The notes under the pieces: generated by a model
Database searches by the model: none
Seen by the model: the letters and a program-made list of their open reading frames with translations, nothing else
What the model was told of the DNA's origin: nothing
Position numbers and translations under genes: made by a program
Assembly: GCA_009391835.1 (NCBI GenBank)
Contig: QWJF01000003.1
Coordinates: 16,205 to 80,204, forward strand
DNA length: 64,000 nucleotides
Reading direction: 5' to 3'
From: Chloroflexota bacterium
GTDB lineage: Bacteria; Chloroflexota; Anaerolineae; Anaerolineales; UBA11579
Shown: one piece after another, positions 15,736-61,573 of the stretch
Layout of the letters: each line of letters starts with the position of its first letter
Numbering within the stretch: position 1 is the first letter of the stretch

Positions 15736-15863
15736 GGCTACTTAGGGGAAACAGGGGGTGATTGGCACAGATATTGCTACATCTGTTTTGATGAGTATCT
15801 ACAAGAAGGCAAAACTCAACTCTGGCCGAAGAGCGCTTGAGCGATTTATTCCGGGGGCGCAAC

Positions 15864-28438: not shown

Positions 28439-30196
28439 TCATTGGGTTGGTCCCTCATCTAGCACTTCGATCTCTGATTGATCAACGCCGGGAAAGAGAT
28501 CAGCGCGAGCCCACAATCCCAATTCGCTTTGCCCAACCGGGGCCTGGCGAAAGAGCAGCCATGCGATCAAATTGTCTGGCCAGTCCCCGGTCCAGCTTGG
28601 GCTTTGGGTCCAAACAAAATCCTGACCGCGATACGCAACCGGGAGCGCAGGCGGTTGATCCAATCCATCGGTGAGAATTATGGCTGGCTGCGCTCCCGAG
28701 GCCAGCACTCCGCCAGACGCAAAGAGGGGCCAATTGCGCAAAGCCCAGCGCAAAGAAAAGCTCCGGCTCTCGGAAAGGATTTCAAGTGTATTTGCCTGAC
28801 CGGTATTTTGGATAGACAGGTCGGTCAGCGTAGAAAGCAAAAGATCCGTTTGTCCAGCGGCCGTGCCTGGAGTGAGTAATGTGTTGTCAGGCGGAAAGCT
28901 CCGATTTTGAATACGAGAGCTAAAAGTAAACGCCAGAAAAAAGGCGAGAACGCCCAGCGTCCAGCGAGCACTTTGAGAGGCAGCAGAGCCTGACCACCCC
29001 AATGCAATCAACACCAAGGCCAGGGCTCCGACGAGCAGGGCGATGCCAGCAATGGCAAGGCGGCCCGTGAACGGCTCTGTGCCCGGTTCAAAACCAGCAG
29101 CCCCTGATAGTTGGATAATGACAATGACGCTGACGAGCAAAAATAGCAAAGATGCGCCAAAAACGGCTGGGCGATTCTCCACTGGCAAATACAAGGCGCT
29201 GGCAAGTTCACGGGCGACAAGCGTCCAGAGCGGCAGGCTTACCCAAAGCAAATGGTGAACTTGGCGACCGGGGTATAGAAAGATGACAATCAATCCAGCA
29301 ATGGCCCAAACAGCTAACACGCGGCCGACTCTATCGTTTTCCTTCCAAGCACGAAACGTAGCGATGCCGCCGAGAAATATCGCGGGCAAACTGTATCCAA
29401 GCAGACCAAGAAGTAGATAGCTGGCAGGAATCCTTGCCGGCTTAAACCAAGCAGTAACGAATCCAGCCAGACCACTGCCAATGCCGGAGAAGCCGCACGG
29501 AGTTGACAGAAAAACGGTAACGCCAAAGGCCAGGGTTGCGCCAAAAGCCATCCAGGCCGGGCCAGCATCCACTTTGCGGAAAAAATCGCGGATGCTCTCT
29601 GTGGCCCAGTGGTGCATTTCACCACTTCGATCCACAACGCGCAGCAACAACCAGGCCAACGCGAGGCTTAGTAAGCCTACAAACAATGTGGGTTCGGAAA
29701 GGAGGGCAAAGGCAGCTAGCACGCCGGCGAGCATCGTTGATCCGCGATGCCAGGCCAACAGGGCGAACAACGGCAGCACAATGCCGAGCATAATCCCGGA
29801 AGCAAATCGTGAGAGGGTGACAAATTCGGGGGCGACGGCCAAGGCCAGGGCGAGCAATAGGGCAGGAACGCGCCCCAGGTTTTCACGTAGCGCATAGGGC
29901 AGCAAAACAAACAGGCTGCCCAACACGGCCGGCCAGAAACGGGCAAGAAAATTCGTGCTGCCGCCGATCAAAGCAAAATTCAAGGCGGTGAGCAGGACAT
30001 ACGCCGGTTGGTCTCCCGTCGAAGCGACCACGCCAGTAGCTATATCATGAGCCTGGAGAGCCTGGTTAGCTTCCAACTCAGTAAGTGGTGCAGCACCCAG
30101 CGCGGCAAAGCGCATGACCAGGGCCAGGCCAAAAACGGCGGCAAATGCTGCAAAGCCGATGGTTCGGGGAGATTGAATTGTCATTGCGCCGACCAT
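28439..30196 (-). CDS. polytopic membrane protein, probable GT-C-fold glycosyltransferase-like protein with a C-terminal extracytoplasmic domain
   Basis: 585 aa with roughly 12 or more hydrophobic helices. An acidic first-loop motif follows TM1 (APLTELEANQALQA). The soluble C-terminal domain is about 140 aa. It is the last of four consecutive giant membrane proteins. The family call is tentative. Confidence 0.45.
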   Translation of the reverse strand: MVGAMTIQSPRTIGFAAFAAVFGLALVMRFAALGAAPLTELEANQALQAHDIATGVVASTGDQPAYVLLTALNFALIGGSTNFLARFWPAVLGSLFVLLPYALRENLGRVPALLLALALAVAPEFVTLSRFASGIMLGIVLPLFALLAWHRGSTMLAGVLAAFALLSEPTLFVGLLSLALAWLLLRVVDRSGEMHHWATESIRDFFRKVDAGPAWMAFGATLAFGVTVFLSTPCGFSGIGSGLAGFVTAWFKPARIPASYLLLGLLGYSLPAIFLGGIATFRAWKENDRVGRVLAVWAIAGLIVIFLYPGRQVHHLLWVSLPLWTLVARELASALYLPVENRPAVFGASLLFLLVSVIVIIQLSGAAGFEPGTEPFTGRLAIAGIALLVGALALVLIALGWSGSAASQSARWTLGVLAFFLAFTFSSRIQNRSFPPDNTLLTPGTAAGQTDLLLSTLTDLSIQNTGQANTLEILSESRSFSLRWALRNWPLFASGGVLASGAQPAIILTDGLDQPPALPVAYRGQDFVWTQSPSWTGDWPDNLIAWLLFRQAPVGQSELGLWARADLFPGVDQSEIEVLDEGPTQ

Positions 30197-30235: not shown

Positions 30236-32677
30236 TCAGGGAGCAAGATAAATTGTGATTGAGTCGTTCTGAAAACCGACTTCAAGATTTTCCTGGAACT
30301 TGCCCTCATCCAAGCCGTACGTGTTGCGTTCCAAAAACCCAATGACGATGTAGCGAACATCGTATTTTTCCAGAATAGCCTGGGCGACAAGCCATTCATT
30401 GGTGGTGTATAGAGTTTCAATCTCGGCAATGCGGGGGGCAAAATCCACACTGTCTCCGCGCCATTGGCCTTCATGGCCCGGCCAGCCCAGCACCGCCGTT
30501 TGACCCGAATGGACGGACATGCGGCCAGCGCCGGTGTAGCTGCCCCCAACAGCTTCGACTAGTGGGGCGAGGGGTTGGGCGCGCAACCAGTTGATGGCGG
30601 CTAGGTCATTGGCGGCTAATCGTTGCGCGCCATCCAATTCAAGGGCTTGATCATTGGCGCGGCGATAGCGATCCGGGAAGGCGAAGGCAGGATAGATGAG
30701 GCCAGCAGCCAGCAAAAAAATAGCAATGACGCCAGCAATCCAGCGCGAAAGCCCTCGCCACTCCCGAATCATTATGGACAGGGCAACCGCAGCAACAACC
30801 CCCCATATCAACCAGGCCTGCATGTAGAACTTAAATACCGTATTCATGCGGGTGCCAAATTGATCACGCAGGTAGATGAATTCGGGAGCGAGCACGAGAA
30901 GGGCGGCAAAGAGAGCCAGAATGAGATGGAAACGGCCGGCTGCGCGCTCTCGGGATTTTTTCTTTTCGGTTTTAGGCTGAGCGCCATTTGGCCAGAAGAG
31001 GCCAAACAACATCCCGAGCAACACAAGCAGGGAAAGCCAGCCGCCCGGATTGGCAATTCGACGCCGGATGGATTCGCCAAGCAGAGAAGCTAAATCAGGA
31101 GCGCCCAGGCGCGTAAGCGCATCGGCAGTGAGATTGCTGTCCGCAAAAAGGGTGGCATACATCCAGGGCAGAAACAGCGAGAGGACCCAAAGTCCGATAA
31201 TCAAAGCAAGGGCAAGAAAGAAACCACGCAGCAATCGACTGGGCTGCCAGTGAGCGTTCCAGGTTCCGATGAGATAGGCGACGATAGGCAGCAATAGTGT
31301 TCCGAACATGATCCAAAGATGCGCACCGCGGGTGGGATTGAGCACGTTGGGCAGCACGCCACCTGCCTGGGAGCTGAAGCCCAGGTAAAAGGGGAGATAG
31401 AGCAATAGTCCGCCCACCCCAAGCAACAGCAGCAGAGTCAGGAATTCGCTGATGCGCTGCATGCCCCAGCCATACTGTTCGGCCTGAAAGATTGCATAGG
31501 CGCCAGCAAACAAGACCAGATAAATGGGAAAATCCCAAATATTAATGAAGGCAAGGCCTCCCAGGATCACAGCGCTTAGGACAAGAAAATGAGATTGGAT
31601 GCGCAGACCGAGCCAACCTGCAGCGTCCGAGCGGGTTGCTCCACCCTGGTAGAGCTGAAAGGCCAGCGCGGCTGCCAGGTAAACAAAGGGCATAGAAAGC
31701 ACGTGGGGATGGAGATCGCCCAGCACAAAGGAGAAGGCGGGAATCTCGTCGATCACTTCCAGTTGACCCCCCGAAAAGCTCAGGTCGTTGATAACCCGCG
31801 AAGCGCGCCACCACCACCAGTTTTCAGTGCCGTAGAGGCGAGGCTGCCAAGCGGGCGCGGTGGTTGGGGCGAAGGCAAGATCCTTGACATCCAACCATGC
31901 CCAAAAGTCGGAGACCAAGCCGCCGCTTGAATCAAAGCTCCAAAACATATGCCGAGCGTGCAGGATTTCGAGGAGTCCTTCAACATTGCCAAGCACCAGC
32001 GTGAGCAAAGGCGCCAGAAGGGCGAGCCATGCATTTGAGCGGCGGGCATTTGGCGCGCGCAGGGCCAGCAGATTGTAGGCTAGCCCATAGGCGCCGAGCG
32101 CGGCCATTGCGAAGGTCATCGCGATGCCCAGACTGAAGGCAGCGCCGCCTGTAGCGGCCGTGATCTTGGCAAGCATCGCGACCATCAGGAAGCCAAAATA
32201 ATAATAGGAGATTGAGTAGCCGGACAACCAAGGATCGTGCGGGGGCATCACGGGTGAGCGAAGAATGGCGTTGATGAAGCCCAGTTCCATTGGTTTTTCT
32301 GTGGTGCCCAAATCCGGATTGGAGGCCCGTAAAAAGGCCATCGCCAGAAAGGCAATCAGGAACAGGGCTTCTACGCCAAGCACATAGCCACGATTGCTCT
32401 TAAACCAGGCCCGGATTTCTTTCTTATCCAGACCGCGCCAAGCCCAAATGCTGAGCCCGCCCAAAAACAAAAGGGCGGTGAGCAGGCTGCCTGTGTTGTT
32501 CTGCAGAAGGCCGTAGCTGCCAAGAATCCAGAAGAGGAAACTCCAAAGCAGCAGGCCAAGAGGCCGGATAAACGTATAGCCGCGATCGGGAAGTTTGCCA
32601 AGGAAACGGAAGGCGAGGGGTAGCGCCAGAAGGCCGAGCCCTACCAGGCTGAGATACCAGAGCAGAACGGTAATCAT
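30236..32677 (-). CDS. DUF2298 / Chlor_Arch_YYY-type polytopic membrane protein
   Basis: 813 aa and strongly hydrophobic throughout. The signature is NPDLGTTEKPMELGFINAILRSPVMPPHDPWLSGYSISYYYFGF (YYYxG motif at about 32197-32206). The C-terminal soluble domain ends YDVRYIVIGFLERNTYG. The family name is recalled from memory (TIGR03662 / Pfam DUF2298). Confidence 0.75.
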   Translation of the reverse strand: MITVLLWYLSLVGLGLLALPLAFRFLGKLPDRGYTFIRPLGLLLWSFLFWILGSYGLLQNNTGSLLTALLFLGGLSIWAWRGLDKKEIRAWFKSNRGYVLGVEALFLIAFLAMAFLRASNPDLGTTEKPMELGFINAILRSPVMPPHDPWLSGYSISYYYFGFLMVAMLAKITAATGGAAFSLGIAMTFAMAALGAYGLAYNLLALRAPNARRSNAWLALLAPLLTLVLGNVEGLLEILHARHMFWSFDSSGGLVSDFWAWLDVKDLAFAPTTAPAWQPRLYGTENWWWWRASRVINDLSFSGGQLEVIDEIPAFSFVLGDLHPHVLSMPFVYLAAALAFQLYQGGATRSDAAGWLGLRIQSHFLVLSAVILGGLAFINIWDFPIYLVLFAGAYAIFQAEQYGWGMQRISEFLTLLLLLGVGGLLLYLPFYLGFSSQAGGVLPNVLNPTRGAHLWIMFGTLLLPIVAYLIGTWNAHWQPSRLLRGFFLALALIIGLWVLSLFLPWMYATLFADSNLTADALTRLGAPDLASLLGESIRRRIANPGGWLSLLVLLGMLFGLFWPNGAQPKTEKKKSRERAAGRFHLILALFAALLVLAPEFIYLRDQFGTRMNTVFKFYMQAWLIWGVVAAVALSIMIREWRGLSRWIAGVIAIFLLAAGLIYPAFAFPDRYRRANDQALELDGAQRLAANDLAAINWLRAQPLAPLVEAVGGSYTGAGRMSVHSGQTAVLGWPGHEGQWRGDSVDFAPRIAEIETLYTTNEWLVAQAILEKYDVRYIVIGFLERNTYGLDEGKFQENLEVGFQNDSITIYLAP

Positions 32678-32680
32678 CTC

Positions 32681-35600
32681 TTAGTCCAGGGTGAGCGCGC
32701 TGGCGTTCGCGCGATAGATTACTGTGTCTTCAAAGCGGAAGACTTCTTCCCAGAGGCGCCCATCCTGGCGCTCAAATTTGCCAAGCCCACTGCCTGGATA
32801 ATAGGCGCGCTCCAATTGTCCTACGATGACGTATTCGACATCATAGGTTTGGAGAAAATCATTGACGAAAGCCAAATCACTGGTTTCATAAAATTGCTGT
32901 ACCGCGCCAACCCGGCCCCAAATATCGTTGCCAGGGACGAACTCGCGCTGTTGGCGTTGGTGCCAGTTCCAGCCGATGACAGCCGGCAATCCGGTGTTGA
33001 TTGCGTATCGAGAGCCCCAGCGGTATTCGCCAGTATGGGCTTCGACGATAACGGGCGATCCTTCGACGTTATCCTGCAACCAACGAATGGCAACATAATC
33101 CTGGTTGAGATCGAGCTCCTGATCGCGCTCGTAATACACGGATGTTTGCATATAGGCCAGGCCGTCGAGCGTGTGGGGCGCAGTCGCCGACATGCGATCC
33201 TTCATCTTGGCGGGCACTGCCAAAACCAGGAATAGCGCACCGCTGGCAATCAAGACTGCGCCGATTCCCACCCAGACGCGCTGCCAGGAGGGCAGCCACT
33301 GACGAACCTCGTTGAATGTCCAAGCCAGGGCCAGGGTCGCACTGAGGGCAAAGAGCGTCCAAACCTGCATGTAGAATTTGAAGACTGTGTTCATTCGAGA
33401 GATGTCGCCGCGCAGAACTACAACTTCGACCATAAGCGTGAGGAAAAGCCCAGTGCCAACCAGGAAAAGCACAAGGCGCTTGCTTTCCGGTTGCCCAGGC
33501 CGCAGGATGAGCAGACCCGCCCAAAGCATCAGCGGAAGAACGAACCAGGCAATATGCACGCCCAAGCCGGTGAGCGCCACAATGGCGGCCAATAAAACCA
33601 GAAGCCCTGCGTAAATCAGGAGCTGGTAAGGCTTGAGTTTTCGCAGAGAGGATAGGGGTGTACTTGCCAACCATTGGCGGGTTTCCCATAACATCCAAGC
33701 CAGGATAAAGAAGAGCATGATGCCCCAATGCAGGAGATAGACGCCAGAGGGCGTGTGGGAACCTGCCCAACGCTCCAGGCTGGTAAAACCCTGACGATAC
33801 CAATGGGCATAGGGTTGGTAGGCAAGGATCGAGGCGAAAGTAATTGCCGCAATGCCGCCAGCAGAATAGAGCCAGCGCGAAGCCGGCTGAATATCCCGTT
33901 TATCCGGGGGAAAATAATGCCCGATAGCATACGCTACGGCGAATGCGGCGATGACCAGATACGTGGGCAAGTCCCAGGTGTTGGTGGGGCGCAGGCTGCC
34001 AATGGCGATGCCGCCGAAGAGGAAGACCCAGAGAAGCTGAAGCGGGGCGCGCTGGCCGCGCCAGGCACGGCTCAAAACGACGGAGAGCGCCCAGGCCAGA
34101 GCAAGCAGTGTGAGAGGCAAAGCGATCATGTGGGCGTGTAGATCGGCGTACGTGAAGGTGAAGAGCGGGAATTCAGTAATCGGAGCGCTCTCACCGGGCG
34201 CTGGGATGATGCGGGTAGGGTTCCAGTACCAATCGCCGAGACCAAAAGGCAGCGGCTGACCAAGAATACGCAGCACAAGGCCACGAGCAGTCCAGACCAA
34301 ACCAGTGATCAAGCCTGCCTCGGTGCCATAAGCGCCATCGCTGCCCAGGCGCATGAAACCCTGGAAGATCATTTGCAGGGAACCCAGGTTGCCCGCCAAT
34401 ACCAAGGCGATGGCAGCCAGGATGCCTACACGATGGGATGCGTTATCTTCATCTTGTTCATCTTCAGTATCCGATTTCCAAGCGCGGTACAGGTTGCTGG
34501 CGAGTGAATAGGCGCCAAGGGCCAGCATGGCGAAGAGGCTGGGCAAAATCAGGTTGTAGGCCACGGAGGGGATAATGCCGAGCAACTTGGTGAGTGAGCC
34601 GACCAAGACAAAACCATAGTAATAGTAGTTAATGTAGCCACCCGCAAACCAGGGATCGTAGGCGGGGAAGCTGGTGCTTTTCAAAACGGCGTTGAAATAG
34701 GCGAAATCCATCGGTTTTTCGCCACCTTTGCCGGGATGCCACAAGTCGGGATTAAACCAGCGGATCAGCAGCATCAGAATGAAGAAGGCGAAGAAAAGCA
34801 CTTCTGTACGCATGAAGAGATGTCGTTTGCGTTCCCACAAGGCGCGCAATTCAACTCGCTGGCGATACGCGGCCCAGGCCCCGGCCAAGATGAGAAGCAG
34901 TGCTACGGCTGCTAACCAGCCGCGCGTAAAGCTCAGGCCGAGCGAGGCACCCAGCCAGGCAAAGTAGGAGAGCAGAAGCAGCCCAGCGAGGCGCGCCAAG
35001 GGATAGCCGTGATCCTGAAGGCCGGGCATGGCCCAGCGAACCATCGGGAAGGCTGCGAAACCGAGCACGGCTAAGGCCAGATACCAAATCAGTGCGCTTA
35101 CTCCGGACGAAGTATTAATCCAGTTATCCACGTCAAAGAGTTGCGACCAGGTGCCACCTGCACGTTGGCGCTCCCAATCCGGTTCGGGAAGCATCAGGTT
35201 GGGCGCCTGAGCGCCGGCGGCGTCCTCAAGGGTGAGCGGGACGGGACCCGTGGCTTGTTTGGGCGTAAGGTGGATCACATTATCCAGATTGACGGCGGAA
35301 AGAAGAGAGACGACTTCAGCCTGATCGTAATCTGCGCTCTTCTTGAAAATGAAAACCTTGGGGTGATCGTAGACCGTAAAGGCCTCTTCAGAGACCTGAT
35401 CGTTGATCACGAGGGAATTAAGCTGGGGTGAGGAATCGAAGATTTGGACAAGCTCGTAGCCCAGGCGACCTTCGAAATCGCCAAGCTGGGCCACATTGAA
35501 ACAAGACTCAATGGTTTGCCCCTCGGGGCATCCGAGCAACAAACGATAATATTCTGTGACCAGCGGGAAACGCTCAGGGATGCGGGGAAGGCTAGCCCAT

Positions 35601-37885
35601 TGTCGGCTGGAGGTAACAAAGAGATATTCGCCGCGATCCAGGATATCCAGGAAGCGATTGAGCTTGGTGGCATCTTCGTCCCAGTACATTTCAAAATTCA
35701 GCCCCCCCTGATAAACACCGCCGAAGGGGTCGTAGCCATCCAGGCGAAGGGGAATGCCATCATCCCAACTGCTCTCGCTGACCACCCCAGCGCCCAGGAG
35801 CGTGGCGGTGCCCGCAGTCTCCATATCAATCTGCATATAGAGCACCTGCTCGGGTTGAATTGAAACACTCTCGCTGAGGCGGAAGTTTGCAGGGGTCGTA
35901 AAGCCGCGGGCCGCGCTCTCGGGATGCAGGACGCCGTCGGCTTCAGCAACGATGCTGCCCATTTCCGGAGTGGTGCTTAGCGCGATATGCACGTCCAATG
36001 GAGCCAATTCAAAATTGGTAAGGGCAGTGAGATTGATCACTAACTGATCGACTGGGAAATCTGCAAAAATATCAAACGTCAGCGTGATGTGGTCGCCAAG
36101 AGACGCTTCTACGATCTCTTGAAGCACGGATTGGGGAACGACGGCTGGATCCTGGGTGTTCATTAAATCGGCTTGATCGAGACGCAACTGGCCCCCTCCC
36201 CCGGGTAAGTTTAGGGTGAGCTGATAAGGGCCGGGAAGACCAATCGGGATGGGAAAAAGAATCTGCTGAGTTGAGCCGGATACCAAGGACACCCAATCGA
36301 CAACATAGCCTTGAGACGAAACAAGTTGGGTTGTTTCGCCTTGGCCGGAGACCAAATCCAACTGGATAGGGGCAAGAACATGATAGAGGGATATTTCTTC
36401 AAGCGTGCCCGTATCCTGCATGCGGAAACTGGTGAAATAGGGTGTGTTTTGGGAAAAAACCTGATTTTGACGATATGGAACCTGCTGCTGTTTGGGGCCG
36501 GCGGCAGTCTCAATAGTCAGCGTGATCGGACCTGGCACATTTTCATAAATCCAGCGGCTGGCGGCAATACGGGTGACCGGTTGCTGGTAAATCCGCACAA
36601 ATGCAAAGGACCAGACCGCACTGCCCAAAAGAGCCACGGCAGCTAACAAAATAGCCACGGGACGGGCCCAGAAGCGCCAGCGGCTGCCATCGTCCCTAGC
36701 ATGGGCGCCTTCATCCCATAAGCGAAAGAGTGCCCAGGCGCCAAAAACGGCCAACACTGGATATACAGGCAGCAAATAGCGCATTGTGGGATTGAAGGCC
36801 ACCGATTGCCACACAAAATAAAGGGCACCCCAGGCCCAAAGCAATAGCTCCGGTTTATTCCAGCCGCGCTTGATAAGCACCCAAGCAGCCCAAAGGAAGC
36901 CGCCCCAGGCAACGATGGCAAGCGGAAGACCCATGCCCCAGCGAGCCATATTCTCAAAAGCAAACCAGATAGGCCGGCGTGCCCATTGCATGGAAGGCGG
37001 CCAATCAATATCTCCGGTGGCCTGACCACGCAGCTGGCTTAGGGTGTCCAGCCAGGCCGAATTCAAGCTGACATTAAAGAAGCTGGGGCCAGCAAATGCA
37101 TAGGGTTGGAAAATGCGAAAAATCAGAAAACTGACCGCGCCGGCCGCCGCGAGAAAAGCAAAACCCCGAGCATATATGGGTTTGCGTTGTTCGTTGGGGA
37201 GCTGCCAGAGGCGAAGAATGAGCGCCGCCGGGAGCATCAGTGCAAGTGGGGCGGCGCTGACCTTGGAGGCCATTGCCATGCCCAGGGCGATACCAAAGGC
37301 CACGAAATCGAAGAGGTTCAAGCTGGTTGCCGGATCCTCGCCTTCACTGGATTTTTCTGGGCCCGCAATACGGATCGCAAAATACAGCGCGAGGAAAATA
37401 AAGAAATTGAGAAAGTTGTCTACCGTGAAATAGTGGGATTGCTGAATTTGGACAACAGTGAAAGCGGAAAAGGCCGCGGCGAGTAGGCCGACGCGTTTAT
37501 CAAAAAGGCGGATGGCAATCAGATAGACAAGGAAGATAACCCCCAGATCGGCGACGGCAGAGAGCGCACGGCCCACGATATGCACCTGATCGTAACCGGT
37601 TTGCCCAAGCCACTCAGCCACGTAGCGGACCGCGATGATGGGCAAGGTGCCGTACACAAAGAAGGAAAAGCCCCGATTGTTGGGGTTGAGGGTCGAGGTG
37701 GCGGTGTTGAAATAATCGCCCAGCTTCTCCACCGGTATCAATGCAGATTCAACTTGGGCTAGAAATCGCTCGTCGGGATGGAGATGGTGCTCGGCGTCCC
37801 AGCGAATACCCGTCGTGCGCAAAAAGGCGGCCACTAAAATGAGGGCCAGAAAAATCAGATCGTAAATTCGGGAGCGTTTGATCAC
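32681..37885 (-). CDS. 1734-aa fusion protein: N-terminal PMT/ArnT-like GT-C module, large extracytoplasmic region, C-terminal DUF2298/YYY module
   Basis: The GTG start at 37885 overlaps the upstream stop (GTGA).
- N-terminal module: [23 protein letters not shown] and about 11 TM helices, down to about 36560.
- Beta-rich soluble region: about 35110-36555, ending ...[11 protein letters not shown].
- Second module: from about 35100 to 32681, paralogous to the 813-aa protein ([48 protein letters not shown]; C-terminal [18 protein letters not shown]). Confidence 0.75.
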   Translation of the reverse strand: [1734 protein letters not shown]

Positions 37886-40038
37886 TGGATTGTCCCTACA
37901 CGATAAACAAGGAAATCCTTGCCCACATATTCACTGGGTTGAAGCTGACTCTCGCCCTGGGGATACAAGTTTTGCAAAGTAGCCAAGCCATCCACATCCA
38001 GCACGTTGAGGACAAAAAGTTTGGGCTCGGGAACATCCAAAGTGGAGACGAGTTCCTCCGGCCATAGCCCGATTTCACGGCCGGGTTGGTCAGCATTGAA
38101 AGCCACCAAACGCGTGTCCACCCAGTGCGGGTAGGCCACCACCCAGGTGCTTTGATCCTTGCCAATGCGATCCGAGAATTCACGGATAACTGCACCCATC
38201 TCTGACGAATTCCACGACTGCTGGCGATATTGGGCATTGTATTGATTGAAAACAAGATCGTAATTAAGCCCCATAACGATCACGACCAACACCACCCCAG
38301 CGCCCCAGCCTATCCATTTGCCCTGCTTCTCGGCAAGGCGATCTTTAATCGCGTGCACAAAGGCCACCAGGGCAATCGCACAAATTATGAAGATTGGAAC
38401 TGCAGAGCCGCCGGCGCGGTTCATGGCGGGATTCTCCTCCGGGAATGCCAGCGAAAGTATTGAAGGCATCATTAGCAATGGAACCGCCAGCAGCAGGAAT
38501 AGATCCTGCCAGTTGCGCGCACGGAGATAGCGGAGCACCACCAGGGCCACGCCGAGCAGGAAGAGTGCGCCTGAAACAAGGTCGAGCGCAGGGCGATTCA
38601 ACAGACCCACCAACCAAATGCTGCCGCCCGAATAAATTGGCAAACCCAAGGCATCCAGTAGATTATCAAAGAAGATAGCTAAGACGGGGCCGGGGTAATT
38701 GATTTCCGCATCCCCCAGGCGGGAAAAGGCCCTGAAACTGAACTCCTGCCAATTTTCAATTGAGTAGCGAAGCAGGGGCGCAAAGACTACAAGGGAAACA
38801 AGCACAAGCACCGCGAAGGCAATCAGTGCGCGACGCTCTGCATAGCGATCCTTTTCATGCAGCCAATACATAACGAGCGCCACCACCATCACGACTGGCA
38901 CGATGCGAAACGAGGTGTAGCCATAGAGTCCAACGCCGAGGAAAAGCCCCGATAGCAGGAAATCATTGATGGTGCGGCGGCGCAACCCGCGCAACAGATA
39001 ATAAAGCGCTGGAGCAGTGAAGCTCGGAAATAGAATGAAGCGCAAGCCAGCACGAGCAAGGACATTCGGCCAATAAGCGACCCCCATGAGCAGCAGGGCG
39101 AGAATGCCCACCCAGCGGCCGCCGAGTTCTTTGCCAAGCAAATAGATATAGATGAGAGAAAACAATCCGAATAAGGCCATGCCGATCTTAAGGCTGAGGA
39201 AGGATAGGCCAGTACCAAACCAACTAGCGATGAGCGCGGTCACATAAAACTGGAGCGGCTCGCGGCCCGTGTTGCGGATAAAAAATATCGGGCTTTGGCC
39301 GTTTTGAATATCCAGGACGTCGAGGAGTTTTTCAGCATGATCACTCAACATTTCAGGGGGGACCGCGCTTAACTGGTAGAAACGGAAGAATGCGGCGATT
39401 CCAAAAGCGACCAGAATTGCCAACGTGTACCCAGAGACACGCTCCCGCCAAGCCTGTGGCTGAATCCATGCTTTATACTGCTCAATACGCGCGCTGACGT
39501 CCGCTCGACTGATCGGCAATCCCTGCCAAAAAGCCGCCATCGTGGCGAAGATGGCGATTATCCAAGTCGCGACGTTGTCGGGCGTAAATTGATTTCCACT
39601 AGTCTCCAACAAAGTGCGCGCAAAGAAAATCAGACCGATTATCAGCGGGAAACCACGAACACTCAAGACGGATTGGTCGGGCAGCCCCAGGGTAATTTCA
39701 GGCAACCGCCATTCACCAATTCTGGCAGACCATATGATGAGGCCAAGCGCGCCGAAGGCAAGCGGCGCGCCGGCAAGCCAGGTTCCATTGGGTGGCCGCC
39801 AGGCGATCTGGGCAAAAATCAGGAGGAGAAATGCCAGGGAAGTCCGCCAGGGAATCCCGGTCAGGTCAATTGGTGAAACAGCCGCTGGTTTGGCTGCCGG
39901 CTTTGGGCTGGATGTAGAGACGCGTGCCGATCGCTTGGCGCCTGGCTCAGGCAGGGGCGGGATTTCCGGAGCAGGGCCGCGCCAAGGCATGAGTTTGGCC
40001 TTGAGATAATCGAGAATGCTGGGTTCTTGTTCTTGCAT
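37882..40038 (-). CDS. glycosyltransferase family 39 (ArnT/PMT-like, GT-C fold) membrane protein
   Basis: About 718 aa. I chose the ATG at 40038, preceded by GAGGAAG; the ORF track starts at TTG 40041. A Pro-rich cytoplasmic N-terminus is followed by about 12 TM helices. The acidic loop is PEMLSDHAEKLLDVLD, and the C-terminal soluble domain is about 100 aa. Confidence 0.6.
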   Translation of the reverse strand: MQEQEPSILDYLKAKLMPWRGPAPEIPPLPEPGAKRSARVSTSSPKPAAKPAAVSPIDLTGIPWRTSLAFLLLIFAQIAWRPPNGTWLAGAPLAFGALGLIIWSARIGEWRLPEITLGLPDQSVLSVRGFPLIIGLIFFARTLLETSGNQFTPDNVATWIIAIFATMAAFWQGLPISRADVSARIEQYKAWIQPQAWRERVSGYTLAILVAFGIAAFFRFYQLSAVPPEMLSDHAEKLLDVLDIQNGQSPIFFIRNTGREPLQFYVTALIASWFGTGLSFLSLKIGMALFGLFSLIYIYLLGKELGGRWVGILALLLMGVAYWPNVLARAGLRFILFPSFTAPALYYLLRGLRRRTINDFLLSGLFLGVGLYGYTSFRIVPVVMVVALVMYWLHEKDRYAERRALIAFAVLVLVSLVVFAPLLRYSIENWQEFSFRAFSRLGDAEINYPGPVLAIFFDNLLDALGLPIYSGGSIWLVGLLNRPALDLVSGALFLLGVALVVLRYLRARNWQDLFLLLAVPLLMMPSILSLAFPEENPAMNRAGGSAVPIFIICAIALVAFVHAIKDRLAEKQGKWIGWGAGVVLVVIVMGLNYDLVFNQYNAQYRQQSWNSSEMGAVIREFSDRIGKDQSTWVVAYPHWVDTRLVAFNADQPGREIGLWPEELVSTLDVPEPKLFVLNVLDVDGLATLQNLYPQGESQLQPSEYVGKDFLVYRVGTIQ

Positions 40039-40062
40039 CAATGATTGCTTCCTCAGGCGCTC

Positions 40063-40102: not shown

Positions 40103-40846
40103 CTAAGCCCTCTGTTTATCGGCAATCATGATTAAGCTCTCGCCCCTACTTAAGGGCAGGAAGCTTCCACCCAGGATTGCCTGCAATCCGCCGGGCCAAC
40201 CGTACCAGAGGCGTTGGATGGCTTGGGGCACAAAGCGAACATAGGGTGGATCCCAAAAGCCGTCCGAAAAAACCTTGCGCTCTTTCAGTCCAGCCGCATT
40301 GAGCATCGCCAGCCATTCCGTAGGGCTGTGCAGGCTGATATGGGTGGGATCCTGGTAGCCAACCCAGGTTTTTCCTTTACGGGCGTGCATCGGCGAATCG
40401 GTGTTGGGCGTGCCCATCACAAAAATACCGCCTGGGGCAAGGACGCGGCCAATCTCCTGGATAGCTTTTTCGGGGTTGGGGAGGTGCTCGGTGACATGCT
40501 TGGCGATTACAATTTGGAAGGTCGAATCTTCATAAAGTGATAGGTCCTCCGCAGAACGCAATGCAAAGTGCCCTTGGGGAACATTGTTACGGGATTGCTC
40601 CAAGGCCCATTCATTCACATCCACGCCGTGAACTTCATATTGCCCAGTCAGGCGTTGCAGCAAATGGCCTAGGCCGCAACCCACTTCAAGAACTTTGCCA
40701 GAGGGCGGACCGTGCTTGGCGGCCAGCAAAGCGTAATAACGATTGGACCACCAGTATTGGCTATACCGCGCAAAGGATACGCGCGCATAACGGGCGGATT
40801 GAAAATATTCTTTGTCGAATGGATGATCCGAATTGTTTGCCATCAA
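40103..40846 (-). CDS. class I SAM-dependent methyltransferase
   Basis: 247 aa. Motif I is VLEVGCGLGHLL, the post-I acidic residue is VHGVD, and the motif II-like stretch is FQIVIAKHVTEH. Confidence 0.85.
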   Translation of the reverse strand: MMANNSDHPFDKEYFQSARYARVSFARYSQYWWSNRYYALLAAKHGPPSGKVLEVGCGLGHLLQRLTGQYEVHGVDVNEWALEQSRNNVPQGHFALRSAEDLSLYEDSTFQIVIAKHVTEHLPNPEKAIQEIGRVLAPGGIFVMGTPNTDSPMHARKGKTWVGYQDPTHISLHSPTEWLAMLNAAGLKERKVFSDGFWDPPYVRFVPQAIQRLWYGWPGGLQAILGGSFLPLSRGESLIMIADKQRA

Positions 40847-41641
40847 TCAAACCTTGCGGGAAACATAGAAAGTGAAAGCTCCCTGCTTGTGGTGATCCAA
40901 GGTGGCGTGTTCGCCGACCAGTTTGGCGGTCAAAGCCAGATTCCAATGGGCGGAGCTAAACAACCAACGGCGAGTGAGTATGCGGGGAAGAATGGTAGGC
41001 GCGCCGAAGTAATGGCCCCAATCCAGCGTGCGCATAGCAGCCGGCGAAAAATAATGCCACCAGCGATCCAATGTAAAACCAGCGCGCTTGAGGCGCGCTT
41101 CCCACTGCTCTGGATTTTCAGCGTGGTGCACGCGGGAAATGCGACGAAACCAGGCTTCGTAGGGCTCGCGCAGGAAGGGCAGCAAGCGGGGAACGCCCAG
41201 TTCCTTGAAATAGGTTGGATTAGGAACGCAGAATAGAAAGGGTGCCCCTTTTTTAAGCATGCGCCCCGTTTCTTTTAAGACATTGTCTAATTCAGGGATG
41301 TGCTCGAGCACGGAATTGCTGAGCGCGCTGCCAAAATGGGCAGAAGGAAATGGGGCGCGGGCGCCATCCGCCTGGACAAGGCCATCGTAGGCCGCCCAGC
41401 GTTTGGCCTCCCTCAAGGAGGGAAGATGAGGATCCAGGCCAACCTTCAATTTGCGCTGAAAGGCGATGCTGGCGAAATGGCCATCCCCACAACCTACGTC
41501 CAACACGGGACCGGGCAGTGCAAGATCCTGATAATAAGCGGCTTCAACTGCCCTCAGAATGGCCCGGAAATAGGGCAACGATTCTAGCATGGGCCAAAGG
41601 AAGGGGTTTTTGTTGTTTGGTGTGGGTTGTAGTGAGGTCAT
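40847..41641 (-). CDS. class I SAM-dependent methyltransferase
   Basis: 264 aa. Motif I is VLDVGCGDGHFA, with GLD and SNSVLEHIP blocks. The junction with the downstream methyltransferase gene has zero gap. Confidence 0.85.
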   Translation of the reverse strand: MTSLQPTPNNKNPFLWPMLESLPYFRAILRAVEAAYYQDLALPGPVLDVGCGDGHFASIAFQRKLKVGLDPHLPSLREAKRWAAYDGLVQADGARAPFPSAHFGSALSNSVLEHIPELDNVLKETGRMLKKGAPFLFCVPNPTYFKELGVPRLLPFLREPYEAWFRRISRVHHAENPEQWEARLKRAGFTLDRWWHYFSPAAMRTLDWGHYFGAPTILPRILTRRWLFSSAHWNLALTAKLVGEHATLDHHKQGAFTFYVSRKV

Positions 41642-41653
41642 GTGAGCAATTGG

Positions 41654-42823
41654 TCAGCGTTGCACAAGCTGGTTGGCAATCTCTTTAAACAGGGCTTCGT
41701 GGCGCTCAGCGCACATTGCGGGGCTGAATTGCTCCCGCAAGGCGTCGCTGTCCCCACGGAATTGGGCCGGGTTATCCAGAACGGCGAGCATGTTTTCGGC
41801 CAGCGCGGCAGCATTCCCGAGTGGCGTTACGCGGCCCATGCCGGTCATCGTTACCGGTTGGCGAACGCCCGGCAAATTTGAAGCAACGACGGGCTTGCCG
41901 TTCATCATGGCTTCGATCTGAACAAAGCCAAACGTTTCCGTGGAGTTGGTACTGGGAACCACCAGGAGATCAATATTGGGGTAGAAGTTAGCCATCTGCT
42001 GCATATCCAGGACTCCCAGGAACTTCCATTGACCCTGGGATTCGTATTGGCGAATTGTGGGCATTAAACGCTTGAGGTAAGCCTCTTCACCGAGAACATC
42101 CTTGTATTGGCCGGCAAACCAGACCATCGCATTGGGATGCTTCTCCAAAATGCTGGGAAGTGCCTGAATGAGCAACTCAACACCCTTTTCCGCCGCGAAG
42201 CGAGTGGCCATCGCGATCACGGGATGGCGCTGCTCAGGATTATTTTCCTGCGCAAAAGCCCGGATGTCCTCTTTCGGCGTCTGGGGCAACTCCACTGCAG
42301 GCGGAATGACGCGAACTTTCTCAGGATAGCTGCTGAGATATGGCGAATAGCTGGCAAAATCTTCGGTATAGGCAGAGATTCGATGGGTGAAGATTGCCGA
42401 GAGATGGTTCATGCTATTGATGACCAGATTCACCAGGCGGTTGAACAGCCCCGGAGGCAACGTAAGGTCTGAATGGTAGATGATGACAGTCGGTTTCTTC
42501 ATTAGGCGGCCACGCAAGGCCAAGCCGGCGGCATCGAACTGGGGAAGATGGAGTAGGACAGCATCGTGTTTGCGAATTTCCTGCGTAGACACAATCCCAA
42601 AGGAGGGAATGAGAACTCCCTTACTGATCCGAGTGAGGATGGGGAGACGACGAATACGGACGCCATCCCGGATTTCCTCCAAGGGAAGATCGGCTTCAAA
42701 TTGGGAGGTAAGCACAGTAACTTCATGCCCACGCTGAACCAATGCTTTGGCCAAACGCTCAGCATAAATCGTCAGCCCGCTTGTATGCGGCCGATAATAG
42801 GTCAGCACAGTCAAAATTCGCAC
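41654..42823 (-). CDS. glycosyltransferase family 4 (GT-B, retaining) protein
   Basis: 389 aa. The N-terminus is MRILTVLTYYRPHTSGLTIY. The C-terminal donor-binding block is PSTNSTETFGFVQIEAMMNGKPVVASNLPG (EX7E-type). Confidence 0.85.
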   Translation of the reverse strand: MRILTVLTYYRPHTSGLTIYAERLAKALVQRGHEVTVLTSQFEADLPLEEIRDGVRIRRLPILTRISKGVLIPSFGIVSTQEIRKHDAVLLHLPQFDAAGLALRGRLMKKPTVIIYHSDLTLPPGLFNRLVNLVINSMNHLSAIFTHRISAYTEDFASYSPYLSSYPEKVRVIPPAVELPQTPKEDIRAFAQENNPEQRHPVIAMATRFAAEKGVELLIQALPSILEKHPNAMVWFAGQYKDVLGEEAYLKRLMPTIRQYESQGQWKFLGVLDMQQMANFYPNIDLLVVPSTNSTETFGFVQIEAMMNGKPVVASNLPGVRQPVTMTGMGRVTPLGNAAALAENMLAVLDNPAQFRGDSDALREQFSPAMCAERHEALFKEIANQLVQR

Positions 42824-42842
42824 AAACGAAGTTTAGTACAAA

Positions 42843-43871
42843 CTAAGCGAAGAGATTGTGATTCGCTCGCACCCAATTGACCAGGTGCTCGACTCCGTCA
42901 TTGATAGGCACTTGGGGCGTCCAGGCGAGTTCGCGCTTGGCCTTACGGATGTCGCTGATATAGACTTTTTGATCGCCGGGGCGAGGTTCCATCCAGGAGA
43001 CGGGTATTTTGCGGCCAAGCAGTTGCTCCAACATGGGGCCACATTCCAACCAAATGGATAACGTGTGCTTGGGGCCGCCGCCGATGTTGAAGACCTGGCC
43101 GGCCACAGCCGCCCGGTTTTCGACCGCTGAATCGTAGGCACGCACCAAATCGCGCACATCAAGCATATCGCGCACCTGCTTGCCATCACCAAAAATGGTG
43201 ATGGGGTGTTCGAGCACGGCTGCAATGACAAACCAAGCCAGCCAACCTTGATCTTCGACCCCAAATTGGCGTTGCCCATAGATGCAGCTTTGGCGCATCA
43301 CCACACTCGGGATGTCATAAATGCGCGCGTAATCATGAACGTATTGCTCAGCAGCCCCCTTCGAACAACCGTAGGGGGAATGAAAATCAAGCTGTTGGGT
43401 TTCCGGCACTCCATGAGGCAGCTTGGCGTATTCATAGCGCTTGGCCCTCTCGACCACCGGATGGTCTTCCATCTCACCATACACCTTGTTGGTGGACGAG
43501 TAGATGATAAATGGGTGCCGGTCTGAAGCGCGAGCTGCCTCCAGCAAATTGAGTGTCCCAAGCGCATTAATCTCAAAATCTGTGCGCGGATCAAGAACCG
43601 AGGTGGTGACGGCTACCTGCGCGGCCAGATGAACGATGACATCCGCATCGCTCGTGGCATCCTTAATCGAATCCGGATCGCGCAGATCACCGACGACAAG
43701 ATTGAACGAATCTGCGCCATGCGATTGGCGCAACCAGGCCAAATTGCGATCAGCGCCGCGGCGAGAGAGGTTGTCAAAAATGGTGACCTGGCGGCCCTGC
43801 GTCAGCAAGTGATCCACGTAATTGCTGCCGATAAACCCAGCGCCGCCTGTCACTACGTAATAATCAGCCAA
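42843..43871 (-). CDS. NAD-dependent NDP-sugar epimerase (extended SDR, CDP-paratose 2-epimerase-like)
   Basis: 342 aa. It has the Rossmann motif VTGGAGFIGSNYV, the catalytic YGCSK, and the block RQSCIYGQRQFGVEDQGWLAWF, which resembles the CDP-tyvelose/paratose 2-epimerase subfamily. The substrate is not determinable from sequence. Confidence 0.8.
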   Translation of the reverse strand: MADYYVVTGGAGFIGSNYVDHLLTQGRQVTIFDNLSRRGADRNLAWLRQSHGADSFNLVVGDLRDPDSIKDATSDADVIVHLAAQVAVTTSVLDPRTDFEINALGTLNLLEAARASDRHPFIIYSSTNKVYGEMEDHPVVERAKRYEYAKLPHGVPETQQLDFHSPYGCSKGAAEQYVHDYARIYDIPSVVMRQSCIYGQRQFGVEDQGWLAWFVIAAVLEHPITIFGDGKQVRDMLDVRDLVRAYDSAVENRAAVAGQVFNIGGGPKHTLSIWLECGPMLEQLLGRKIPVSWMEPRPGDQKVYISDIRKAKRELAWTPQVPINDGVEHLVNWVRANHNLFA

Positions 43872-44894
43872 TTAGCCTTCTCCTTGCGTCATCGAGGAGC
43901 GGGTGAGCAGTTGCCGGTATACATGTCCAAGCGATTCACCTTGTCCGGCAAAGCCGATCGCGCCCCCCACGCCCGTCATCACAAAATATAGCGCGTGGGC
44001 GGCAATCGCGTAGGCCAGGGCAAGCGAGGGTTCGATGCCGAATAGTGAAAGCCCAGCGACAACTGCGCCTTCCAACACTCCGATGTAGCCAGGGGACGAA
44101 GGCAAAGCCACGCCCAGCGAGCCAAGGGCGACTGCCACAACGGTCCAAATGAACTGTGGCTCGGGGAAAAAAGCAAACATCAGGGCGAAATACCAGGCAA
44201 GATTGAAAGCCCAGGCCAGGGCCATCCAGAAAGAAACCGTGAGGAAACGCAGCCCGCTTTTCAAGGCTGCGAGCCCCTCAGTAAAAGCAGCCAGCTTTTT
44301 TCCGACCCAGGATTGCAGCCTCGGCCAGGGTCGGGTGAGAGCCGAGATCAATCGAAGAAAGGCAACAGGATTAGCTGCTAAAGCAAACAGCAGCCCAAAG
44401 CCCATCACTACAAGCGCACCAGCAAAGAAAGCCGCTGAACGAATCCAGCTCAAGTCAACAAAAAGAGGCAGGCTGACCAGTAATAGTCCGGCAGCGAAAC
44501 CCACGTCAAAAATGCGCTCGACGACGATGGTGGAGAACACACGCCAAAAACCGAGGCCGCTCCGCTGGCCCAAAAGCAGGGCGCGGCCCAATTCACCGAG
44601 GCGAAAGGGAAGCACATTGTTGAGCAGGTAGCCTTGATTCAATGCAAGAAAACTATCTTTGAATGAGACCTGTTCTTCAAGCAGAGTGCGCCAGGCTTTG
44701 GCCCTAATTGCGACCGCGCCCAAAAACAGAAGTGCGGCTACAGGGACCCATGAAAAATTTGCCTGAGAAAAAGCGGCAGCCACTTGATTGATATCAATGA
44801 AAAAGAACAAAATAACTAGGGCCAAGGCGCTTATCAAGATGCCGGGCAGCATACGGGCAAAGAGCCTGGGGGAGGATTCGCCGGGTTTAGTCAT
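43872..44894 (-). CDS. UPF0104 / lysylphosphatidylglycerol-synthase-TM-region-like (flippase-like) membrane protein
   Basis: About 340 aa with roughly 8 TM helices. The family-typical block is RAKAWRTLL...[24 protein letters not shown]. The start is uncertain (ATG 44894 or 44852). The ORF-track start at 44948 would overlap lepA by 62 nt. Confidence 0.65.
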
Positions 44895-46689
44895 CGTCGA
44901 GGCGTAAGACGGCGAGGAAAGCCTCCTGAGGGATTTCCACACTTCCAACCATCTTCATGCGCTTCTTGCCCTTTTTCTGCTTTTCGAGCAACTTGCGTTT
45001 GCGGGTCACATCGCCACCGTAGCATTTTGCCAAAACATCTTTGCGAAGCGCTTTAACGTTGGCACGCGATATTACGCGCCCCCCTGAGATCGCCTGGATG
45101 GGGACGACGAAAAGCTGCTGAGGAATCAGATCTTTCAGTTTGGAGATCAGAGCTTGGCCGCGATGGTAGGCCTTGTCTTTATGGACGATGGAAGCCAGTG
45201 CGTCCACGGGTTCAAGATTAACGAGAATGTCCAGTTTAACCAAATCCTCGGGGCGGTATTCCTTGAATTGATAATCCATCGAAGCATAGCCACGGGTAGC
45301 GGATTTGAGTTGGTCGAAAAAATCGACGATCAATTCAGCGAGGGGAATCTCAAAATTGAGTTGAACGCGATCCGGTGAAGGATACTCCTCGCCAATGTAG
45401 GTAGCACGACGCTTCGTGGCCACGTCCATAACTGGGCCATAGTACTCGGTGGGGGTAAAGATTTGAACATCCATCCAGGGTTCACGGATTTCTTCAAGCT
45501 CGTCTTCCTCGGGCAAACCAGCCGGGGAATCAATGCGGATTGTCTCGCCGTTTTTGAGTAGCACCTGGTAAGCCACGGATGGCGCGGTGACAATAATATC
45601 CAAATCGTATTCACGCTCAAGGCGTTCCTGGATGATCTCCATATGAAACATACCCAGAAAGCCGCAACGAAACCCATAGTTGAGGGCCTGAGAAACTTCC
45701 TGCTCATAAACCAGTGAGGCATCATTGAGTTGAAGCTTTTCAAGCGCGTCTTTCAGATCATCGTAATCTTCACCCTCGATAGGATAAATGCCCGCGAAGA
45801 CCATCGGCTTTACCTGGCGATAGCCGGGCAAAGGCTCAGGAGCGGGATTCGATTTGGTGGTAAGGGTATCCCCCACTCTGCATTCCGATACCGATTTCAA
45901 GCCGGTAGCCACATAGCCCACTTCCCCGGATTCCAACACATTTGTGGCGCGCATGGCAGGCGCAAAGATACCCACCTCGATGGGCCTCATGGAAACACCT
46001 GTAGCGATGAGATGCAAGCTTTGCTCTCCCTCGATGCGGCCATCCACCACGCGAATATAGGCCACTACACCCTTGTAGGAATCGTAATGCGTATCGAAGA
46101 TGAGCGCCCGCAAGGGAGCATCAGCATTGCCCTTCGGCTGCGGCACCCGCTGAACTATGGCTTCGAGAACCAGCTCAACATTCTCGCCTCTTTTGGCTGA
46201 AATTTGCAAAATATCTTCACTGGGGGTGCCAATCAGTTGGCTTATTTCGGCGGCAACCTCCTCAGGGCGAGCAGAAGGCATATCGATCTTGTTGATCACC
46301 GGGATGATCTCCAAATCAGCTTCAAGGGCCAAATAGAGATTAGCTAGCGTTTGGGCCTGAACGCCCTGGGTGGCATCCACGACGAGAACGGCTCCTTCGC
46401 AGGCATTGAGCGCGCGGCTCACTTCGTAACCAAAATCAACGTGTCCGGGGGTGTCAATAAGATTCAACTCGTATTCGTTTTTGTCAGCAGATTTGTAACG
46501 CATACGCACCGCAGAGGCTTTGATGGTGACGCCTTTTTCGCGTTCGAGATCCATCGTATCCAGTACCTGGTCGGTCATTTCTCGCGCGGAAACCGTCTCC
46601 GTGAGTTGGAGCATACGGTCAGCTAGCGTGGATTTGCCGTGGTCAATATGAGCTATGATGCAGAAATTACGGATGCGTTGGGTTGTCAT
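44887..46689 (-). CDS. lepA: translation elongation factor 4 (LepA)
   Basis: The start is at [25 protein letters not shown] (G1 motif), with DTPGH (G3) and NKID (G4). The LepA-specific C-terminal domain ends ...[22 protein letters not shown]. Confidence 0.97.
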
Positions 46690-49695: not shown

Positions 49696-49759
49696 TGCGG
49701 CATTCTATCACCCGCCTTTCGCGTTGTTCTCTCCCCTAAAGGATGCTATTATCTTCACC

Positions 49760-50629: not shown

Positions 50630-50634
50630 CCCCC

Positions 50635-61525: not shown

Positions 61526-61573
61526 ATAATTCTTCGCTCCTCTAAAGCAGGATATATACTGTATTATACTTGG

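Follow-up and report, generated by a model that had tools for sequence, protein, structure and literature searches.

The window analyzed here is a stretch of 64,000 nucleotides from contig QWJF01000003.1 of a Chloroflexota bacterium (assembly GCA_009391835.1). On its minus strand, at positions 32681..37885, it contains one open reading frame (ORF) of 1734 codons plus stop that joins a membrane module resembling the protein mannosyltransferases (PMT) and ArnT to a second membrane module of the DUF2298/YYY family. The locus raises the question of whether such a gene is real and, if so, what kind of protein it encodes. Our analysis indicates that the product is most likely a tandem of two modules of the glycosyltransferase C (GT-C) type with about 27 predicted transmembrane (TM) helices. 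A preliminary description of the locus, made from the sequence, had assigned a GT-C-like fold to the N-terminal part and treated the YYY part as its partner. It had missed that the YYY module itself appears from its structural model to be a GT-C protein, which changes the picture from a glycosyltransferase with a partner to a tandem GT-C.

Two membrane modules in one polypeptide

The reading frame starts with GTG in the context ...atccaGTGAtc..., where the last two bases of the start codon belong to the TGA stop of the preceding 719-aa ORF and the two ORFs share 4 nt, and the ORF list and the translation show zero internal stops over all 1734 codons. The gene had been described in this form, as one ORF with a GTGA overlap, and this description was correct.

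The N-terminal module (module 1; residues 1-435, 36581..37885) has about 11 TM helices and, by the positive-inside rule, a cytoplasmic N-terminus. It was matched by the Pfam families PMT (E 1.8e-12, 47.8 bits with a cut-off of 22.7) and PMT_2 (E 1.3e-9, 38.9 bits with a cut-off of 26.1), with the match limited to residues 105-247. Directly after the first TM helix (TM1), in the first external loop, lies the acidic motif HPDER (residues 36-40, 37766..37780), of which H36, P37, D38, and E39 were invariant in 51 homologues. GT-C enzymes are defined as multi-spanning membrane proteins with 7-13 TM helices in which TM1 is closely followed, within the first external or luminal loop, by a DxD-, DD-, or DE-type motif, and in most members the N-terminus is cytoplasmic and the C-terminus faces the lumen (PMC6801728). 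The HPDE sequence after TM1 thus matches the motif that defines the superfamily. An AlphaFold2 (AF2) model of residues 1-928, calculated with an alignment of 51 sequences, had a predicted local distance difference test score (pLDDT) of 89.6 and a predicted TM-score (pTM) of 0.88. When it was compared with the PDB by Foldseek, 33 matches with E<1e-3 were obtained and every one was a GT-C protein; they included AglB (E 7e-8), Pmt4, Pmt1/2, ArnT, STT3, EmbA/B/C, ALG9/12/3, PglB, and AftA. With about 11 helices, the acidic motif, and the modeled fold, module 1 is placed in the GT-C superfamily with matches to PMT/PMT_2. The preliminary description, which had proposed a GT-C-like module with an HPDER loop after TM1, is supported in this point both by Pfam and by the fold, and the domain search gave no indication that the module could be unrelated to GT-C enzymes.

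The Pfam PMT/PMT_2 match, the approximately 11 TM helices, the D-E pair after TM1, the GT-C fold, and a predicted inside-to-outside orientation are features that module 1 shares with the PMT/ArnT-type enzymes of families GT39 and GT83. Bona fide PMT enzymes of GT39 possess a luminal MIR domain and mannosylate proteins on Ser/Thr, whereas in the fusion protein Pfam found no MIR domain and the last TM helix of module 1 is followed by a beta-sandwich and an unclassified alpha/beta domain. Because of this missing domain and the differently folded soluble part, we do not call module 1 a protein O-mannosyltransferase. A match to TIGR03663, the Agl23 family, was likewise not obtained for the fusion protein at E<=0.01. 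The idea that module 1 is a paralogue of one of its neighbors was rejected, as BLASTP against the 719-aa PMT_2 protein and the 585-aa Agl23-like protein gave E values of >0.3.

The membrane part of the second module (module 2; residues 929-1558, 33212..35101) is predicted to have its N-terminus outside and comprises three additional N-terminal helices and a core of about 13 TM helices. Pfam DUF2298 covers residues 971-1512 (E 9e-121, 404.6 bits versus a cut-off of 27.8), and TIGR03662 (Chlor_Arch_YYY) covers residues 931-1726 (E 4e-163, 544.9 bits versus 300.25) with positions 5-726 of the 727 model positions. The YYYxG motif is present as Y1087-Y1088-Y1089-Y-G1091 and is kept in fused and standalone copies. 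Judged by its sequence, module 2 clearly belongs to TIGR03662/DUF2298. The same holds for the 813-aa protein encoded directly downstream (30236..32677, minus strand), which matches the Pfam and TIGR03662 models end to end and far above the cut-off and is 31-32% identical to the fused module over the membrane part and the tail alike, which makes it a distant paralogue. The claim that the fusion contains a complete YYY module paralogous to the next gene therefore stands; what differs from other members is that this module is fused behind a PMT-like one.

The assignment of module 2 to the GT-C superfamily is probable and is based on the structural model. The AF2 model of residues 900-1734, again calculated with 51 aligned sequences (pLDDT 90.0, pTM 0.93), gave two Foldseek matches with E<1e-3, DPY19 (9e-5) and AftA (2.4e-4), both of which are GT-C proteins and were found with a probability of 1.0. 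All remaining matches had E>0.1 and, except for two chains of the AglB C-terminal domain, probabilities of <0.15. A pattern corresponding to the GT-C acidic motif was found as well: a TM helix entered from the cytoplasm leads into the first large external loop, and this loop contains conserved acids. A K/R-rich loop (residues 1008-1022) is followed by a TM helix (1023-1043) and then by NPD..E1056-K-P-M-D1060, which is invariant or nearly so. The loop itself (residues 1045-1091, 34613..34753) has invariant columns in NPDLWHPGKGGEKPMDF...YYYYG and carries NPDLWHPGKGGE(1056)KPMD(1060)F...YYYYG. E1056 and D1060 are candidates for the catalytic acids of module 2; together with M1059 and Y1087-1089 they are also conserved in the standalone YYY copies, with D or E at position 1060.

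Two further motifs of module 2 are kept in fused and standalone copies, ITEFPxFTFxYADLHAH in an external loop (residues 1236-1252, 34130..34180), with E1238, D1248, H1250, and H1252 conserved, and RMNTVFKFY in a short external loop (residues 1497-1505, 33371..33397). The former might bind a metal or a substrate. Altogether, 51 positions were common to fused and standalone copies, among them E1056, D/E1060, R1225, E1238, D1248, H1250, H1252, N1302, D1305, E1487, and R1497. As the same residues are kept in both kinds of copies, neither of them looks dead.

Module 2 ends in an extracytoplasmic alpha/beta domain (residues 1559-1734, 32684..33211) that is included in the TIGR03662 match. Two C-terminal soluble domains had been expected, but the fusion protein has only this one. 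In Foldseek it was matched to the globular domain at the C-terminus of AglB-S2 (3vu0) with a probability of 1.0 and a TM-score of 0.55 normalized to the target, while the sequence profile of the tail gave marginal matches to AglB C-terminal domains (3vu0, E 0.017; 3vgp, E 0.48) amid chance matches to triosephosphate isomerases. Module 2 is comparable to the 13-TM GT-C enzymes of the STT3/AglB/PglB oligosaccharyltransferase and DPY19 C-mannosyltransferase types, of which DPY19 is its best whole-chain match, in the core of about 13 TM helices, in the large first external loop with conserved acids and, for AglB, in the external C-terminal domain. It differs from these proteins by the three extra N-terminal helices, by the absence of detectable sequence homology, and by the absence of an alignable WWDYG motif, which leaves membership of module 2 in the STT3 family unsupported. 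The sequence GWNWHQRQQR was considered as a WWDYG equivalent and rejected, since the likeness is only visual and the matches vanished once a shared "YIIVGxxER" string was trimmed.

The region between the two modules had been described as soluble, beta-rich, and presumably extracytoplasmic. The extracytoplasmic location agrees with our topology model, but the region is not uniformly beta-rich, as AF2 divides it into a beta-sandwich, an alpha/beta domain, and a linker. The beta-sandwich (residues 454-703, 35777..36526) is variable, is missing from 15 of the 150 representative relatives described below, and had only weak PA14/Flo-like Foldseek matches (probability 0.4-0.85). The alpha/beta domain (residues 704-890, 35216..35776) is highly conserved and has many invariant residues, including E704, W707, D708, R761, Q762, W763, and R772. 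It also contains C786 and C795 (C786-x8-C795, 35501..35530), which are the sole cysteines of the whole protein, lie nine residues apart, and are both invariant, as expected for an extracytoplasmic disulfide; they probably form one. The linker (residues 891-928, 35102..35215) comprises about 40 residues modeled with low confidence (pLDDT 42-52) and ends in the conserved motif QRAGGTWS..F, with Q907, G911, and W913 being invariant. When the beta region, alpha/beta domain, and tail were each searched separately, Pfam gave nothing meaningful.

The topology model uses 27 helices assigned by DSSP in the two AF2 models and was tested by charge bias on 34 homologues. In these proteins, K+R per residue amounted to 0.21 in the predicted cytoplasmic loops compared to 0.08 in the short external loops. 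The soluble parts of the fusion protein are acidic, with 29 K+R versus 63 D+E in the middle region and 15 versus 26 in the tail. According to the model, module 1 would have its N-terminus inside and its C-terminus outside, and the middle region would also be outside. The YYY module would start outside, reach the K/R-rich loop 1008-1022 after three crossings, continue with the core of about 13 helices, and end outside. The outward orientation of the soluble regions that had been proposed before is thus in agreement with the positive-inside statistics and the invariant cysteine pair within this model. Such a path could allow YYY modules to be joined to one another, or behind an 11-TM enzyme, with no need for additional helices. 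An origin of the protein by internal duplication was rejected, as hhalign of the N- and C-terminal membrane profiles gave a probability of 3% and that of the middle alpha/beta domain and the tail one of 0.1%; the lack of detectable homology speaks against a recent duplication.

Fused, separate, and longer forms in relatives

The identical 1734-aa ORF was found on an 82-kb ENA scaffold and in a separate Logan assembly of run SRR2027830, and the exact fusion protein is already present in NCBI under automatic names only. A search of 5.8 billion proteins retrieved more than 120 clusters (90% identity) of full-length relatives with 1,600-1,835 aa and 45-63% identity, mostly labeled Anaerolineales. 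In a scan of species-representative genomes, at least 596 relatives were obtained, and the best 80 loci were nearly all from Anaerolineae. A census of these loci by ORFs and module hidden Markov models (HMMs) showed a single stop-free frame across all five parts in 78 of them, including complete chromosomes and the cultured Bellilinea caldifistulae GOMI-1; the remaining two were cut by contig ends. No stop or frameshift that splits the ORF was found, and these results confirm that the fusion gene is real.

When 1.84 billion representatives were scanned in full by HMMER, using residues 1-928 as query, 4,604 relatives were obtained, 1,249 of them at E<=1e-30, and the best 150 representatives at 50% identity were classed with the module HMMs. 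Approximately 70% were fused: 61 were complete five-part fusions, 15 were fusions without the beta-sandwich, 27 were tail-less fusions that are mostly truncated, and 3 were longer forms. The other 44 had the N module only, and many of these are fragments. The preliminary description had stated that the two families are usually separate neighboring genes. This is not the case for these 150 representatives nor for the 80 closest species loci; within Anaerolineae the two families are mostly fused, and the fusion is the norm of the lineage. TIGR03663 and TIGR03662 genes are known from the TIGRFAMs notes to co-occur, and it was presumably this pairing that the preliminary description had meant; in the window its counterparts are the separate genes for the 585-aa and 813-aa proteins.

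The three longer forms, with 2,315-2,445 aa, are metagenomic representatives. P0226 and P0260 have the order N-YYY-YYY, and P0212 has an extra PMT_2 module ahead of N-YYY, so that each neighbor of the fusion gene in the window is covalently joined to it elsewhere. P0226 and P0260 resemble a class named in the TIGRFAMs note on TIGR03662, whose members have an additional N-terminal region and contain YYY twice. The unfused state was found in P0133, on two contigs, one of them 121 kb long. At this orthologous locus the synteny is the same, with FtsJ, LepA, LPG_synthase_TM, GT4, methyltransferase, and PMT_2 genes; next come genes for a 928-aa N protein, a DUF952 protein, a single DUF2298 protein of 850 aa, and a 596-aa protein, and then cmk and plsC. 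Standalone N-like genes that are more distantly related (710 and 714 aa) were also located only a few kilobases away from DUF2298 genes or a PMT_2-DUF2298 fusion. The joint action of the two modules, which had been proposed by Rosetta-stone logic, is supported by the unfused orthologous locus and the neighboring standalone genes, and the super-fusions, the adjoining standalone YYY gene, and the tight conserved operon described below are further evidence of functional coupling.

Another relative, P0121, was not counted as a true split orthologue, because it has a single in-frame stop on a contig with 2x coverage and tblastn reads through it. At this locus (L004, around 4620-4640) the stop lies exactly in the linker and the frame continues into YYY; it could stem from a sequencing error or reflect a naturally occurring nonsense or split variant. 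In a complete Chloroflexota genome (CP070764.1, locus L003, 15797-21026), the fusion gene is followed by a 96-aa ORF and then by a 1743-aa ORF in the place of the standalone YYY gene. The latter has no Pfam match on record and could be a giant unannotated envelope protein.

The conserved operon and other genes of the window

The fusion gene belongs to a tight minus-strand operon with gaps of -62 to +61 nt and the order lepA, LPG_synthase_TM, epimerase/dehydratase, GT4, two methyltransferases, PMT_2, fusion, YYY, Agl23-like, cmk, and plsC. Immediately upstream and translationally coupled is the GT-C gene for the 719-aa PMT_2 protein (37882..40041; Pfam PMT_2, E 3.9e-11). It is preceded at 40103..44948, with gaps of 0-61 nt, by the genes for an LPG_synthase_TM-family protein, an NAD-dependent epimerase/dehydratase, a GT4 protein, and two S-adenosylmethionine-dependent methyltransferases, as assigned by Pfam. 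The LPG_synthase_TM-family gene (43872-44948, minus strand), whose product resembles the flippase domain of MprF, starts the glycan operon and is a candidate for the translocator of a lipid-linked intermediate. Downstream of the standalone YYY gene lies the gene for a 585-aa membrane protein (28439..30196, minus strand) that is weakly similar to TIGR03663 (Agl23; NCBIfam E 1.2e-7, below the cut-off) and is matched by no Pfam family.

Conservation of this neighborhood was scored for the same strand and the same side over the 54 species loci with enough flanking sequence. The GT4 gene and cmk were kept in all 54, the LPG_synthase_TM gene in 49, lepA in 47, the Agl23-like gene downstream in 43, and the first methyltransferase gene in 41. 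A PMT_2 relative was present on the same strand in 45 of the 54 loci and wholly upstream in 40. A standalone YYY gene directly followed the fusion gene in 69 of the 80 loci of the census.

Several observations concern other parts of the window. On the plus strand, AT skew is +0.19 to +0.24 between 26000 and 40000 compared to about 0 to 0.1 elsewhere; this stretch coincides with the run of minus-strand membrane-protein genes, and hydrophobic codons that are T-rich on the coding strand are the likely cause. Genes for a UbiA-family prenyltransferase, a GHMP kinase, and an amino-acid-kinase-family protein lie in a row at 49724-52382 (plus strand); they look like an isoprenoid set of the mevalonate type and may have a role in lipid-carrier supply. 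A 372-aa ORF at 60803-61921 (minus strand) has Ribosomal_S16 as its sole Pfam match, at residues 140-198, so that its true start is probably well downstream and S16 seems to have a long C-terminal extension. The topoisomerase I encoded at 55312-57639 (minus strand) carries an N-terminal DUF5679 domain before Toprim. The 688-aa ORF at 15837-17903 (plus strand) has only a C-terminal SnoaL_2 domain (residues 584-679), its first approximately 580 residues being unannotated. At 13004-15157 (plus strand), a 717-aa ATP-binding cassette (ABC) permease with BPD_transp_1 only at residues 556-714 adjoins a phosphonate-binding protein and an ABC ATPase and is probably duplicated or fused.

A proposed function for the fusion protein

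The function that we favor, with moderate confidence, is that of a single polypeptide of about 27 TM helices in which two lipid-carrier-dependent GT-C glycosyltransferase modules are covalently joined and act in series. Module 1 would be an 11-TM PMT/ArnT-like enzyme with D38 and E39 of the first external loop as catalytic residues and with its own extracytoplasmic beta-sandwich and alpha/beta domains (residues 454-890). Module 2 (residues 929-1734) would be a DUF2298/YYY enzyme using the acids E1056 and D1060 and carrying the AglB-like external C-terminal domain. Both active sites would lie on the outer face of the cytoplasmic membrane, where the two modules may act sequentially and share their substrate, either a growing envelope glycan or a glycoprotein or glycolipid acceptor, with polyprenyl-phosphate-linked sugars as donors. 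GT-C enzymes in general use sugars linked to polyisoprenyl phosphate and have an inverting mechanism. Partners in this process would be the PMT_2 enzyme encoded upstream, the standalone YYY paralogue encoded downstream, and the Agl23-like protein; the cytoplasmic steps would be performed by the epimerase, the GT4 enzyme, and the methyltransferases of the operon, with the LPG_synthase_TM-family protein as candidate flippase.

The fusion protein would then correspond to the GT-C dimers Pmt1-Pmt2 and EmbA-EmbB, with a covalent link in place of their non-covalent association. It would resemble the PMT dimers in having two GT-C units side by side, but its second unit is part of the same chain and comes from another family. 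The mycobacterial enzymes EmbA-EmbB, EmbC, AftA, and AftD are large GT-C proteins with sizeable extracytoplasmic domains of the carbohydrate-binding type and occur among the Foldseek matches of both modules. These enzymes form hetero- or homodimers that work on envelope polysaccharide with polyprenyl-phosphate sugars. The Emb partners, however, are separate polypeptides of one family, whereas the fusion protein combines two unrelated GT-C families in one chain, and the Chloroflexota differ from them in lineage and envelope.

Several points weigh against a tandem of glycosyltransferases. A profile HMM search of the PDB sequences with the whole protein gave no GT-C match, and the profile-profile comparison detected no homology between the two modules. 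The topology is a model derived from DSSP helices and charge bias rather than from a dedicated predictor or an experiment. Within the window no GT2-type polyprenyl-phosphate sugar synthase is encoded, so that the donor pathway is incomplete. The census favors close relatives, as the patterns used for the scan lie in the C-terminal module and the loci were ranked by similarity. Finally, the searchable literature contained no biochemical or genetic data on any DUF2298 protein and no functional study of DUF2298/YYY/TIGR03662 proteins, of GT-C enzymes in Anaerolineae, or of tandem GT-C fusions; publications on the "Y_Y_Y domain" were discarded, as this domain is unrelated.

The lack of reported DUF2298 transferase activity in the literature also agrees with a different explanation, in which only module 1 is a glycosyltransferase and YYY is a GT-C-shaped translocator, scramblase, or delivery module for lipid-linked sugars that couples flipping to transfer. 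The co-occurrence of TIGR03663 with TIGR03662 genes fits this explanation, too. Agl23 of Haloarcula hispanica (TIGR03663) is a related GT-C-like protein genetically linked to YYY genes. It was reported to be a flippase rather than a transferase: it is described as a putative flippase of hexose-P-dolichol, and M5GN2-PP-Dol is translocated by the purified protein in liposomes (PMC11182771). In the window it is the 585-aa protein, a weak relative of Agl23, whose gene closes the run of GT-C genes, while module 1 shows no similarity either to TIGR03663 or to the 585-aa protein. We nevertheless consider a flippase role of YYY rather unlikely, since the invariant acidic, histidine, and arginine residues of the external loops and the conserved external globular domain correspond to the pattern of a GT-C active site and not to that of a passive scramblase. 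Moreover, the operon already has two flippase candidates, the LPG_synthase_TM-family and Agl23-like genes, and two or three YYY copies per locus suit serial transfer better than redundant flipping.

It is also conceivable, but improbable, that one of the modules is catalytically inactive and supports the other as a scaffold or by binding the acceptor, so that the fusion represents a pseudo-enzyme heterodimer made covalent. GT-C enzymes are commonly dimeric, as exemplified by Pmt1-Pmt2 and EmbA-EmbB among the Foldseek matches, and obligate PMT dimers have been described (PMC12705809). Such a role is opposed by the invariance of the candidate catalytic acids in both modules (D38/E39 and E1056/D1060) and by the conservation of the same YYY residues in standalone copies, which must work alone. 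That two adjacent genes were joined into the long ORF by an assembly or sequencing error can practically be dismissed, because the in-frame stop in the linker of P0121 comes from a contig with only 2x coverage and, apart from the separate genes in one related genome, everything else (two assemblies, the number of clusters, the species census with complete chromosomes and an isolate, and the invariant linker residues) contradicts it.

The interpretation as a tandem of two GT-C enzymes can be extended, tentatively, to the locus as a whole. DUF2298/YYY could possibly be an undescribed GT-C family whose 13-TM core resembles that of STT3/DPY19 and whose external domain resembles that of AglB, and PMT_2, N-YYY, YYY, and the Agl23-like protein of the conserved Anaerolineae locus could form a multi-GT-C assembly line linked both covalently and genetically. 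If this is true, the assembly line would work outside the membrane, where it would either make an essential envelope glycan specific to the lineage or glycosylate surface proteins. The series of separate N and YYY genes, N-YYY, PMT_2-N-YYY, and N-YYY-YYY would then reflect how the enzymes are physically ordered in the complex.

This architecture occurs commonly in the lineage and is a foreseeable variation on known GT-C dimers. As the fusion is standard across Anaerolineae and already present in databases, it is a useful functional clue rather than a surprise. A natural single-chain GT-C pair would be a convenient structural target for studying GT-C cooperation. DUF2298/TIGR03662 is a large family that is widespread in Chloroflexota and archaea and has no known function. 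The fusion to a GT-C module, the flanking GT-C genes, and the fold evidence provide a concrete and testable assignment for it, that of an extracytoplasmic lipid-carrier-dependent glycosyltransferase. To our knowledge, the chemistry of the cell envelope of Anaerolineae is poorly characterized, and the conserved operon marks a probably important, uncharacterized envelope-glycan pathway of these bacteria.

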